Below are positions 29,201-58,752 of a stretch of 64,000 nt of DNA, piece after piece; within the stretch, counting starts at the first letter, position 1; the number at the start of each line of letters is the position of its first letter. Under the pieces are notes generated by a model, which was not told the DNA's origin, did not search any database, and worked only from the letters and a program-made list of their open reading frames with translations. This stretch comes from Octopus sinensis. Its lineage: Eukaryota. Both the position numbers and the translations under genes were made by a program. The stretch is taken from positions 67,456,001 to 67,520,000 of the forward strand of contig NC_043008.1 in NCBI RefSeq assembly GCF_006345805.1, read 5' to 3'.

Positions 29201-29756
29201 GAGTGAGAGAGCAGTTCATGCCATCAAAGTGACACTGGGGTAAAATATACGAAGCCCAATATACCCATCATGACTACCCGTCTGATAAAGGTACACCAGG
29301 CACATGCATCACAACCATATGTGCGCGACATGGTGATCTCATATCAAGATAAACAGCACATGACCTTGCAGGTGGGGCCCAGTTATAATTTTCTTCAGGT
29401 TGAGTAGCCCATCCCGCTCAAACGGTCCCTGAATAAGGGTTGTTTAAGGATGTTGAAAGAACCACCCATGTTTCCAGAGGTGAACTATTCAAACCCCAAA
29501 GAATCCCTCTCAACACATGGCTATGATGCTCCCCCACTACTTCTGCTCGTGATCAGAGATGCACATATCGTCAGCCACTAAGGGACATGCTCAACTGGTT
29601 AAGGTCAAACAACTGACAAGCAAATCTGTGGTATTGAGCAGAATATTTGCTGTAGCCCATCTTTTATACCAAGACAAAACAATGTACATGATAACACTTC
29701 CAATCAGTTAAGATCAGAAGCCATGAGAGCTACTGCCTGGTACTGCATCAGGGCAT
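29201..29756 (-). mobile_element. 556-bp non-coding (TAA)n-associated element, full length
   Basis: Ends GAGTGAGAGAGCAG...CATCAGGGCAT with (TTA)n on both sides; near-identical to the other copies. Strand is inferred from microsatellite polarity. Confidence 0.9.
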
Positions 29757-30142
29757 ATTATTATTATTATTATTATTATTATCATTATTATTATTTCCAT
29801 TTATTATTAAAAGGTATTATTGTTTAGTTTCAACTTTTGTCTTGTACTTGAGATAATCATAAATATGTGAGAGTTGAAGGGAATAGTAGCAGCTTGGTGA
29901 ATAGACCAAATTCTACATATCTGTAAACAGATTCGGCAGATGGTGAGAGGCGCGGCAATAGACCTTCCTGTGCAATAAGGAAACAAACGAGGCCTCACAC
30001 CCATGGGGTCAGCAAAGGTCAAATGTATTTACTACTACTAGCGATGAGAGCGCTGACCTTGTTCTATTTTAAATTACTGATGGTAAAAATAGTAATATAC
30101 GTATACTGATGTCCACATCGTTGAATTTTTGAATTTCTGAAA

Positions 30143-30384
30143 TCATCATCATCATCATCATCATCATCATCATCATCATCATCATCCTTCTTCTTCTTCT
30201 TCTTCTTCTTCTTCTTCTTCTTCTTCTTCTTCTTCTTCTTCTTCTTCTTCTTATTATTATTATTATTATTATTATTATTATTATTATTATTATTATTATT
30301 ATTATTATTATTATTATTATTATTATTATTATTATTATTATTATTATTATTATTATTATTATTATTATTATTATTATTATTATT
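30143..30384. repeat. Stepwise compound microsatellite (ATC)n-(TTC)n-(TTA)n
   Basis: Seen directly in the sequence. Confidence 0.95.
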
Positions 30385-30940
30385 GAGTGAGAGAGCAGTT
30401 CATGCCATCAAAGTGACACTGGGGTAAAATATACGAAGCCCAATATACCCATCATGACTACCCGTCTGATAAGGGTACACCAGGCACATGCATCACAACC
30501 ATATGTGCGCGACATGGTGATCTCATATCAAGGTAAACAGCGCATGACCTTGCAGGTGGGGCCCAGTTAGAATTTTCTTCAGGTCGAGTAGCCCATCCCG
30601 CTCAAAAGGTCCCTGAATAAGGGTTGTTTAAGGATGTTGAAAGAACCACCCATGTTTCCAGAGGTGAATTATTCAAACCCCAAAGAATCCCTCTCAACAC
30701 ATGGCTATGATGTTACCCCACTACTTCTGCTCATGATCAGAGATGCACATATCGTCAGCCACTAAGGGACATGCTCAACTGGTTAAGGTCAAACAACTGA
30801 CAAGCAAATCTGTGGTATTGAGCAGAATATTTGCTGTAGCCCATCTTTTATACCAAGACAAAACAATGTACATGATAACACTTCCAATCAGTTAAGATCA
30901 GAAGCCATGAGAGCCACTGCCTGGTACTGCATCAGGGCAT
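30385..30940 (-). mobile_element. 556-bp (TAA)n-associated element, full length
   Basis: Same boundaries and length as 29201-29756. Confidence 0.9.
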
Positions 30941-31065
30941 TTATTTTTTATTATTATTGTTATTATTATTATTATTATTATTATTATTATTATTACAATT
31001 ATTATTATTATTATTATTATTATTAGTAGTAGTAGTAGTGTAGTAGTAGTATAGTAGTAGTAGTA

Positions 31066-31250
31066 GTATAGACGTCGCACAGTATAAAACATCGCGAGGC
31101 TGTTGATTGAAGATATTGTGTCTACCAGGGGTTTGTACTGTTTGTCAAGTCACAACAAGGATCTTAGACAGACAGTACTTTACGCCATATGCATGCAGTT
31201 CCAAAGTAATGCCGACTTTTGTAATACTTCTAGATTGTAGGGTATTTCTA
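31066..31250 (-). mobile_element. R4-clade LINE 3' end (another family)
   Basis: EIPYNLEVLQKSALL..A.I.RKVLSV* followed by a tgtctaagatccttgttgtgacttgaca hairpin; flanked by TAG/TAC repeats. Confidence 0.7.
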
Positions 31251-31312
31251 AAGTTTTACTACTACTACTACTACTACTACTACTACTACTACTACTACTA
31301 CTACTATCATTA

Positions 31313-56800: not shown

Positions 56801-56879
56801 AGGTAACGTACGTCACCATCGTCATCACCACTATTATTTTCCGACGTTTGACAGTTTCATTACAAAGAGATTAGAAAGT

Positions 56880-57198
56880 GCCAGATAATTGACTTTGCAA
56901 TCTCAAATCAATATGTGAGGTATACAAAAAATATCAAAATAGCAGGACCTAGCAATTGAATTACAGAGACTATGGAAAGTACGGATAAAATACATCCCAG
57001 TAGTTATAGGTGCATTAGAAACTACCTCTAAAGATTTCAACAGATGGATAGAGGAAGTGGGCATAAAATCCAGTTCAGTTCAGCTCTAGAAAAGTGTTAT
57101 TAGGGACAGCTAGGTGGATTCTTGCCATCTAAGTTTATATGTTGTAACTCGATGTTAGGAATGTTTCTTTTCCAACAGTTTAATCTGTTGTGTGTACA
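56880..57198 (+). mobile_element. R4-clade LINE 3' fragment (RLE) followed by (AAT)n
   Basis: IIDFAI...K..K.QDLAIELQRLWKV...IPVVIGAL...SVLLGTAR. Confidence 0.8.
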
Positions 57199-57509
57199 AC
57201 AATAATAATAATATTAATAATAATAATAATAATAATAATAATAATAATAATAATAATAATAATAATGATGATGATGGTGATGATGATGATGATGATGATG
57301 ATGATGATGATGATGATGATGATGATGATGATAATGATGATGATGATAATAATAATAATATAATCATAATAATGATGATGATGATAATAATAATGATAAT
57401 GATAATAATAGTAATAATAATATAATAATAATATAATAATAATAATAATAATAATAATAATAATAATAATAATAATATGATGATGATGATGATGATGATG
57501 ATAATGATA

Positions 57510-57978
57510 ATTTTTTATTGGCCACCAGGGACGAACACAAATCATAAAGGACGATATACAAAGGACAGTGGGGTTAAACATGTAAACAGTAAAAAAAAAA
57601 CAGCTGACAAGGAGATTAAACCAACAATATACTTCGTCAAAAGGGGGAGGGGTGACACCGAGAGGTGACCAAAGAAACCTCACACACTTTGGATCTCCTA
57701 ATCAAAGGAACCTTATGTAGCATCCCTCTCCTCCTCATTTCATCCGGTCTACAGGCGGACAATCAGTGTAGGCTCATTCCCACGGGCCATTCTGGCCACA
57801 TTCGCCATTTCAACAAACTTACTGGGTGACAGCACCTCCTTCTCCAGCCTCACTTTTCTGTTCAAGTTCCACCTGAAAAAATCAATGAGGCCTAGGCCGA
57901 AGAGGACGATTTCCCGTCTTCAACCCTTTCAATCGCGTCCACCACGCAACCTCTTTTGCCATAACCACCAGAGAAAAA
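57510..57978 (-). mobile_element. Tx1 LINE 3' fragment
   Basis: VMAKEVAWWTRLKGLKTG; ends gtggccAATAAA plus ATT/ATC repeats. Confidence 0.8.
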
Positions 57979-58196
57979 CTGCGTTCCTTCTCGGTCAAAT
58001 TATTATTATTATTATTATCATCATCATTATTATTATTATTATTATTATTATTATTATTATTATTATTATTATTATTATTATTATTATTATTATTATTATT
58101 ATGATTATTATTATGATTATTATCATTATCATTATCATTATTATTATTATTATTATTATTATTATTATTATTATTATTATTATTATTATTATTATT

Positions 58197-58752
58197 GAGT
58201 GAGCGAGCAGAGCATGCCATCAAAGTGACACTGGGGTAAAATTTACGAAGCCCAGTATACCCATCATGACTACTCGTCTGATAAGGGTACACCAGGCACA
58301 TGCATCACAACCATATGTGCGCGATATGGTGATCTCATATCAAGATAAACAGCACATGACCTTGCAGGTGGAGCCCAGTTAGAATTTTCTTCAGATCGAG
58401 TAACCCATCCAGCTCAAAAGGTCCCTGAATAAGGGTTGTTTAAGGAGGCTGAACGAAACACCCATGTTTCCAGAGGTGAACTATTCAAACCCCAAAGAAT
58501 CCCCCTCAACACATGGCTATGATGCTCCCCCACTACTTCTGCTCGTGATCAGAGATGCACATATCGTCAGCCACTAAGGGACATGCTCAACTGGTTAAGG
58601 TCAAACAACTGACAAGCAAATCTGTGGTATTGAGCAGAATATTTGCTGTAGCCCATCTTTTATACCAAGACAAAACAATGTACATGATAACACTTCCAAT
58701 CAGTTAAGATCAGAAGCCATGAGAGCCACTGCCTGGTACTGCATCAGGGCAT
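58197..58752 (-). mobile_element. 556-bp (TAA)n-associated element, full length
   Basis: Same boundaries and length; (TTA)n on both sides. Confidence 0.9.

Follow-up and report, generated by a model that had tools for sequence, protein, structure and literature searches.

The 64-kb window (the whole stretch of DNA analysed here) contains six BLAST matches to a 556-bp repeat when the copy at 29201..29756 (− strand) is used as query against the entire window, the query itself included. This copy belongs to a young subfamily and differs by 0.7% from the majority sequence over 53 copies. Two other full 556-bp copies lie on the same strand at 30385..30940 (98%; the reference for sub-features below) and 58197..58752 (96%), and an older end-to-end copy of 541 bp (88%) occupies 37273..37813 on the opposite, + strand. 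Read on the (AAT)n strand, these four copies start with ATGCCC, end with CTCACTC and have AAT tracts on both sides. Tracts lie 3′ and 5′ of the first copy (29071..29200 and 29757..29795, −) and of the second (30251..30384 and 30948..31025, −), 5′ of the + strand copy (37161..37272, +), between that copy and a Dong element (37814..37918, +), and 3′ of the copy at 58197 (57999..58196, −).

BLAST and flank reading thus bear out the first-pass annotation, which had described 556-bp copies with precise common ends inside TAA tracts; its observations that the element has no long ORF and no terminal inverted repeats (TIRs) also stand, the latter because the best inverted self-matches span only 8-11 nt. 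It had further described two partial copies abutting such tracts, which is correct in part. The 5′-truncated copy at 50929..51431 (−, nt 57-556, 97%) does so at its 3′ end, but its nt 57 is joined without an AAT spacer to upstream Dong coding DNA; the other, given as 27485..27714, is flanked by an AAT tract only at 5′ and is a permuted fragment (27481..27714, −), in which nt 316-354 are joined to nt 84-281 and the 3′ end of the element is absent.

The repeat is confirmed as real and is far larger in extent than the window. Exact 3′ tails number 12,939 across the genome, and AATAAT follows 94 of the first 100 listed; the background probability that the next six bases read AATAAT is 0.002 (from 58 evenly spaced stretches), which excludes chance as the source of the TAA confinement. 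The best 30 genomic loci all stop at nt 556, with AAT following, and of 54 copies having a 3′ end 46 go on with AATAATAAT, the remaining eight being AAT-like. The 3′ junction into AAT is precise and the 5′ junction variable, with truncations and short duplications, a pattern like that of target-primed reverse transcription: 34 of the 54 copies start at nt 1 and the others between nt 2 and 419. Of the four sites found for a host repeat that contains (AAT)n, one carries the element (locus L002) and three are empty, indicating insertion into a pre-existing (AAT)n tract, within which, as a perfect triplet repeat, a target-site duplication is unreadable. In 580 kb of evenly spaced DNA there are 13 insertions, from which about 60,000 copies are estimated. 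The TAA preference and fixed polarity proposed from the window, for which a tabulation of flanks had been suggested, hold genome-wide, and the element is likely a short, non-coding, dispersed, high-copy non-LTR retroposon with a fixed 3′ end and truncated 5′ ends. It is neither a solo LTR nor a DNA transposon, and it does not correspond to a UTR in the single full-length Dong family with which it was compared; a solo LTR would have TG...CA ends, a short target-site duplication and no fixed microsatellite target, whereas the element has ATG...CTC ends and one-sided truncation. No description of the 556-bp family was found in the literature; repeat libraries (Repbase, Dfam) may still hold one, and a family so abundant probably sits, without a name, in automated repeat libraries.

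Dong/R4-type LINEs lie beside several of these copies. A near full-length member of family A, a candidate helper family, occupies 37919..42552 (+) and carries reverse transcriptase (RT), CCHC and PD-D endonuclease motifs as well as in-frame stops. A 5′-truncated family B piece (27809..29070, −) lies between two element copies in the same polarity, and a decayed RT-zinc-finger piece (51432..53057, −) is fused to the copy at 50929. Compared with the PDB, the Dong protein matches R2-type proteins only (five of five), and a search with the family A protein returned near-identical copies only. In 29 of 30 cases the element has the polarity of the nearest Dong/R4 fragment lying within 600 bp; such co-polarity follows of necessity once both use the same strand of the tract, so that it does not tell which enzyme acts. 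At three places (loci L023 and L070, and 50929 in the window) element and Dong are fused on the same strand without a spacer, which could be the result of later deletions. As a control, another, far more abundant SINE is without TAA flanks among the matches listed, and its flanks are often duplicated.

Taken at a probability of roughly 0.78, the best explanation is that the element is a non-autonomous retroposon and that the reverse transcriptase-endonuclease of Dong would copy its RNA into TAA microsatellites; it is likely a microsatellite-specific Dong passenger rather than a classical SINE. The earlier idea of a SINE-like RNA mobilised by an RLE LINE thereby survives in its retroposon signature and, as the best explanation, in the choice of a Dong/R4 partner, but not in the hairpin or the promoter clues that it named, nor did the Dong families sampled reveal a shared tail. 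Of 43 matches whose 5′ end is intact, eight do not reach nt 550, some being split or chimeric copies; plain target-primed reverse transcription does not predict such stops, which count against this explanation.

A comparison of the element tail with 13 Dong representatives (about 10 families) detected no shared sequence (best p = 0.036, in one of 13, uncorrected), and no match exists between the element and full-length family A. A protein-coding remnant was rejected, as the element has neither a long ORF nor a tblastn match to Dong. These comparisons also bear on a reading with the same mobilisation but another origin, namely that the element is a SIDE-like, internally deleted derivative of an unsampled or extinct Dong family, its ends being LINE UTRs. 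R2 SIDEs exist (PMC3414825), a 5′ ribozyme is described for Bombyx mori Dong (PMC3774820), and the annotation of a related octopus lists 51 Dong-R4 consensus families (PMC13282606) against the about 10 sampled here. Yet the element matches neither full-length family A nor any 3′ UTR seen, a tail-to-LINE join occurs in none of the best-supported loose ends listed, and no convincing HDV-like fold was obtained: a descriptor, used without a positive control, gave two unconvincing candidates and nothing at the 5′ end of family A, and Rfam gave none. Such a derivation is therefore considered unlikely. A hammerhead or retrozyme was rejected, the head dimer having no core, the two CTGANGA words of the body no hammerhead fold, and Rfam no match.

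The 3′ region contains two hairpins of different standing. The terminal hairpin in which the first-pass annotation saw a structure borrowed from R4 (30403..30418, −) is a weak one, at −4.3 kcal/mol, and begins 40 nt before the element end, compared with 58-80 nt for the 3′ hairpins of 10 of 13 Dong representatives and 109-181 nt in the other three. A covariance model made solely from Dong 3′ UTRs gives seven matches in the element, this hairpin not among them; the borrowing is not upheld, and the hairpin was rejected as the Dong motif. A strict version of it fits the element at p 0.04 and six of 15 representative Dong UTRs, in two cases at another hairpin. The covariance comparison with R4 3′ UTRs proposed earlier points instead, weakly, to a bulged stem-loop at nt 456-503 (30438..30485, −) with a 5-nt GGGUA loop and a folding energy of −25.9 kcal/mol. 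The model places its first-ranking in-element match at nt 457-505 of the sense strand with all 12 pairs formed, at a weak 9.5 bits (rough E 0.09, within the element); at E≤10 across the window, nt 456-503 is not among the 18 matches, and several non-Dong places score 10-15 bits. Family A has a bulged stem-loop with a GGGAA loop in its 3′ UTR (42481..42528, +); the loop of the element lies 79 nt from its end, versus 52-69 nt in Dong families A-H. Two common variants within the stem-loop (nt 468 and 498) preserve pairing, and a 12-nt deletion damages it in the copy at 37273..37813. A hand-made descriptor gave p 0.007-0.046, but was written after viewing the element and finds only four of 12 Dong motifs. 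The whole element RNA folds at z = −4.8.

The other end of the element bears on whether it could be a classical Pol III SINE whose tRNA or 5S head has degenerated strongly, a reading judged about as improbable as a derivation from a lost Dong family. Its discrete purine start and a size as in SINEs would agree with this, and the 5S RNA of the genome can be aligned over its full length to nt 102-219, albeit marginally (p about 0.03-0.04 against shuffles). Against it, ARAGORN detects 0 tRNA genes in the element, Rfam at E≤10 (29001-31100, one copy and one head array) gives only sub-threshold chance matches, and nhmmer finds no 5S match in the element, for which reason a 5S origin was rejected. 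The sense strand has no B box, in agreement with the earlier annotation, and T4 runs occur at three places in the element, the earliest being at nt 78. Neither of the promoter clues put forward near the inferred 5′ end, an A-box-like word and a TATA motif, is supported; the "A box", TAGCTCTCATGG in 29201-29756, varies between copies and in any copy misses two conserved positions of the A-box consensus.

It is more improbable still that an AP-endonuclease LINE (RTE, CR1 or Tx1) moves the element, the 3′ (AAT)n being its own tail annealed to TAA tracts. Target-specific SINEU (PMC4494074) offers a precedent, its partner LINE being Tx1, and a perfect repeat makes tail and target inseparable. However, no cluster of such LINEs was recognised upstream of 309 AAT tracts; besides the element and Dong 3′ UTRs, the clusters there comprise a tRNA-Penelope repeat and pieces of SINEs, antisense or unrelated, with 130 singletons left unclassified; Tx1-like pieces ending at TAA tracts (two in the window) run in the opposite polarity; and Dong is the partner in all three direct fusions.

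Three features had escaped the first-pass annotation: heads of 138 nt in tandem, the fusions of element and Dong, and a MITE that has captured nt 106-271. The head module, nt 1-138 (30803..30940, − in the reference copy), recurs at other loci as tandem units before the element, from one to about 90 in number, and ends in a predicted hairpin of nt 106-138 (30803..30835, −), the foot of which coincides with a junction hotspot and the start with that of the MITE-captured segment. With junctions scored within nt 131-145, the break falls at nt 136-139, with 0-3 extra bases, in 18 cases among 20 independent loci or lineages; comparison segments gave three matches (nt 98-112) and six loci (nt 150-164). 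An identical junction is present in contigs of three of four sequencing runs. Other breakpoints exist (nt 17, 21, 25, 42, 54 and 151-152), nt 138 being the strongest hotspot seen. This concentration suggests that tandem heads arise when the enzyme jumps end to end between templates, the acceptor being a discrete head RNA. R2 performs template jumps in vivo (PMC3414825). Clean cleavage at nt 138 freeing a mobile 3′ product was rejected, as there is no peak of 5′ starts there: among the 52 loci that make up the first 100 matches of the 275 listed, they range from nt 128 to nt 141, with nine of 52 at nt 138-139, and none of the 54 copies with a 3′ end starts at those positions. Spread at the DNA level, as a MITE, as a satellite or by gene conversion between microsatellites, is highly improbable and largely refuted by the 3′-fixed, 5′-ragged pattern: although a MITE carries nt 106-271 and the head arrays look satellite-like, the element lacks TIRs, both CpGs are decayed in the MITE piece (19/19 and 17/17 copies), so that the MITE took it from a dead element copy, four of the arrays seen to their end close with a full or near-full element, and one-sided truncation fits reverse transcription.

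Under the preferred reading of a Dong passenger, a structured RNA would begin at A1, and the Dong protein would bind its 3′ region, possibly at the bulged stem-loop of nt 456-503, nick the (TAA)n tract and prime reverse transcription from the fixed 3′ end. On reaching the RNA 5′ end, the enzyme may sometimes jump end to end to another RNA with the addition of 0-3 bases, a favoured acceptor being a head fragment that ends at nt 137-138, probably because trimming or termination takes place where the 106-138 hairpin has its foot; the fusions would stem from jumps that link element and Dong RNAs. Expansion at the DNA level could then turn a few head duplications into arrays with as many as about 90 units. 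A bolder interpretation, possible but doubtful, is that of a new class of retroposon without a known small-RNA head or LINE sequence, combining a structural mimic of the Dong 3′ stem-loop, a precise 5′ end made by an undescribed internal promoter or self-processing, and a stable 138-nt head RNA polymerised end to end by an RLE reverse transcriptase, which would seed satellite arrays inside microsatellites.

Several short retroposons invite comparison: the partner LINE of EhSINE1 is of the RLE/R4 type, that of SINEU is Tx1, and the names OK and OR2 belong to the octopus set of tRNA SINEs. As described for Entamoeba histolytica (PMC2996970), EhSINE1 resembles the element in its 500-600 bp, without an ORF, a small-RNA precursor or clear Pol III boxes, but has about 70 bp in common with EhLINE1, target-site duplications and no specific target, whereas the element has no sequence in common with the LINEs sampled and is confined to (TAA)n. 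The R2 SIDEs of Drosophila are also non-autonomous, site-specific passengers of an RLE LINE with template jumps at the 5′ end; in the accounts cited (PMC3414825, PMC3774820) they are rare and combine a 5′ HDV ribozyme with a LINE 3′ end, neither of which was found in the element, with its tens of thousands of copies. SINEU and Sadhu are described as short retroposons without a Pol III promoter (PMC4494074), as is the element; SINEU shares with it target specificity and 5′ extensions, but has a U1/U2 head, to which snRNA the element has no match. The octopus SINEs OK/OR1/OR2 and tRNA-Core/Deu (PMC4824008, PMC8967140) are similar in high copy number and probably in animal group, and are set apart, by their description, as tRNA-derived. 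Dong/R4 LINEs themselves (B. mori Dong; Dong-R4 in octopus, PMC13282606) share TAA target and polarity with the element and possibly a 3′ stem-loop, but the element has no ORF and no sequence identity with them.

In summary, RLE LINEs have few passengers (R2 SIDEs, EhSINEs); the ones compared share sequence with their LINE. If the reading as a Dong passenger is true, about 60,000 TAA-strict copies without shared sequence would show the minimal recognition needed by a Dong/R4 protein, which would be useful for RLE-based gene insertion, and the genome-wide junction hotspot would record end-to-end jumps between templates as they happen in vivo. The hotspot also offers a testable path from retroposon RNA to satellite DNA. 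TAA microsatellite markers in the octopus group would often adjoin the 556-bp repeat.

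The 556-bp element is genuine: an abundant non-coding repeat that is confined to TAA tracts and truncated on one side only. BLAST within the window recovered all six copies listed by the first-pass annotation, four end-to-end (29201-29756, 30385-30940, 37273-37813 and 58197-58752) and two partial (27481-27714 and 50929-51431). As it had described, all four end-to-end copies share precise ends (ATGCCC at the start and CTCACTC at the end, on the (AAT)n strand) and carry an AAT tract on either side, while self-comparison and an ORF check revealed neither TIRs nor a long ORF. The partial copies lie where it had placed them, but the 27481 piece is permuted rather than simply partial, and the 50929 copy does not abut a tract at its 5′ end, where nt 57 is joined to Dong coding DNA. 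The TAA preference extends genome-wide: exact 22-nt tails number 12,939, and among the first 100 listed, 94 continue directly into AATAAT (background frequency 0.002) and the remaining six into AAT-like sequence. Fifty-eight evenly spaced 10-kb stretches (579.8 kb in total) held 15 matches, read as 13 insertions and making up 0.87% of that DNA, which scales, with wide sampling error, to ~60,000 genomic copies.

The 3′ end is reached by 54 of 70 matches; 34 of these begin at nt 1, the others being 5′-truncated with starts from nt 2 to nt 419, and short duplications at the 5′ end are common. Such a fixed 3′ end combined with truncated or duplicated 5′ ends is the pattern of target-primed reverse transcription (TPRT); it establishes the (AAT)n strand as sense, and we infer an RNA intermediate. 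Of four sites of a tRNA-head/Penelope repeat that has an AAT tract inside it, one contains the element and three are empty; therefore, at least the 5′ AAT tract was there before insertion. This composite repeat (L002 1419-2300; also in L012, L014, L027, L109 and L139, all fetched loci) consists of a tRNA-like head, internal (AAT)n and a Penelope-like segment with what we take to be a hammerhead-like core, and is possibly a tRNA-headed Penelope passenger; a Penelope-type GIY-YIG fragment also lies at window 26066-26521 (Pfam E 0.004, below cut-off). At L086 6748-7319, the stem-loop region (nt 456-500) occurs a second time, inverted, after an old element copy.

The LINEs of the same tracts, about ten families, have an RT domain and visible CCHC and PD-D motifs, and their protein matches only R2-type proteins in the PDB; from resemblance and TAA target, we presume them to be Dong/R4. 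In 29 of 30 cases, the element points the same way as the Dong fragment closest to it. The other abundant SINE of the genome is not TAA-bound, and two Tx1-like pieces that terminate in (ATT)n and lie at TAA tracts (window 42632-44446 and 57478-57998) have polarity opposite to Dong. Three element copies abut Dong coding DNA without a spacer, the element 5′ part preceding Dong at loci L023 and L070 and Dong preceding the element 3′ part at window 50929; template switching would explain these fusions, which could instead stem from later deletion. From these sequence patterns, we consider Dong the probable helper mobilising the element (probability roughly 0.78). The candidate R4/Dong partnership first proposed has shared tracts and polarity in its favour, but not tail sequence, none being common to the element and any Dong family sampled. 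Separately, window 61850-63822 holds a 5′-truncated piece of Dong family B that is tandemly duplicated along with its AAT spacer (unit ~950 bp, 98.6% identity).

Across about ten divergent Dong families, the 3′ UTR contains a covarying stem-loop with CC, a UAG bulge and a 5-nt purine-rich loop (window 42481-42528, 27835-27882, 31131-31178 and 44401-44448), likely to be the TPRT signal. Its covariation is 0.449, against 0.232 in shuffles, over twelve segments anchored by eye on a common hexamer, a choice that favours the structure. A Dong-only covariance model picks out further copies of Dong-type 3′ UTRs in the window, with scores of 10-28 bits, and its top match within the element is nt 457-505, on the sense strand, with every pair formed and a GGGUA loop. 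Because this match scores 9.5 bits (rough E 0.09) and several chance matches in the window score higher, the rightly placed stem-loop is only a lead as a candidate recognition signal. The terminal hairpin previously suggested as a borrowed R4 structure is absent from the model's matches inside the element.

At the other end, searches of the element found no tRNA head, no Rfam family match and, in keeping with the earlier reading, no B box; no hammerhead was found, nor any convincing HDV-like fold, and similarity to 5S is marginal. The RNA as a whole folds well (z = -4.8). Direct head junctions would place the RNA start at A1. Exact junctions of nt 138 to nt 1 number 482 in the genome, and the joint recurs in matched public contigs of three of four runs. 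Fetched head loci consist of an AAT tract, 1 to ~90 heads and then usually a full element (33 heads at L163, 14 at L164, 10 at L165 and 4 at L166); the longest array (L161-L162) reaches the end of the fetched stretch, and L145, L153 and L155 are truncated or decayed. When the break was allowed to fall anywhere in nt 131-145, matches numbered 551. The first 100 listed (all of numbered sequences C1-C28 and part of C29) represent 20 independent loci or lineages, of which 18 have the break at nt 136-139, either joined directly or bearing an additional A, AA, C or TA. Control windows gave 3 junction matches (nt 98-112) and 6 loci, five at nt 151-152 (nt 150-164). There is thus a junction hotspot at nt 137-138, and a predicted hairpin (nt 106-138) ends exactly there. 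Since 5′ truncations show no peak at nt 138-139, trimming or early termination of the head RNA fits better than a clean cut. We infer template jumping as the source of the junctions; in vivo, R2 jumps to other RNAs from the 5′ terminus of its own (PMC3414825).

The long arrays have a single junction in common and are grouped on C28 and C29, and so probably expanded at the DNA level. The clusters (C29 4.4-5.5 Mb, C28 3.9-10.2 Mb; L158-L166), with 139-bp and 141-bp units and one common junction per chromosome, would reflect either local spread or segmental duplication. Units other than the 138-nt head can also form arrays, because one of at least 5.7 kb on C1 (68851407-68857163) repeats the first 54 nt. 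In run X19, from another organism, contig depth is several-fold higher over the head (window 30803-30916) than over the body. This may point to larger head arrays or to a family made up of heads alone; depth in contigs does not equal copy number.

Element nt 106-271 are also carried inside a ~490-bp MITE that is flanked by TA and has long, imperfect TIRs (L125-L144 on C1, e.g. L134), presumably Tc1/mariner-like from its flanks and ends; its 30-nt motif has 200 exact matches genome-wide. As both CpGs are decayed in every MITE copy covering them, the piece was captured from a dead element copy.

The element works like EhSINE1 and the R2 SIDE, yet as tested falls under the definition of neither, and it fails a strict SINE test. 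A literature search, with repeat databases outside its scope, returned no prior description; the comparison covered parts of PMC3774820, PMC2996970, PMC4494074, PMC4824008, PMC8967140 and PMC9115989, and PMC13282606, in the parts covered, lists 893 SINE families that are unclassified and recently active, as well as 51 families of Dong-R4, and describes none like it. Between 77% and 92% of its words are present in twenty public runs under seven organism codes. Because identities to the reference copy (30385-30940) span 74%-99.8%, the family is long-standing and has been active in recent times.
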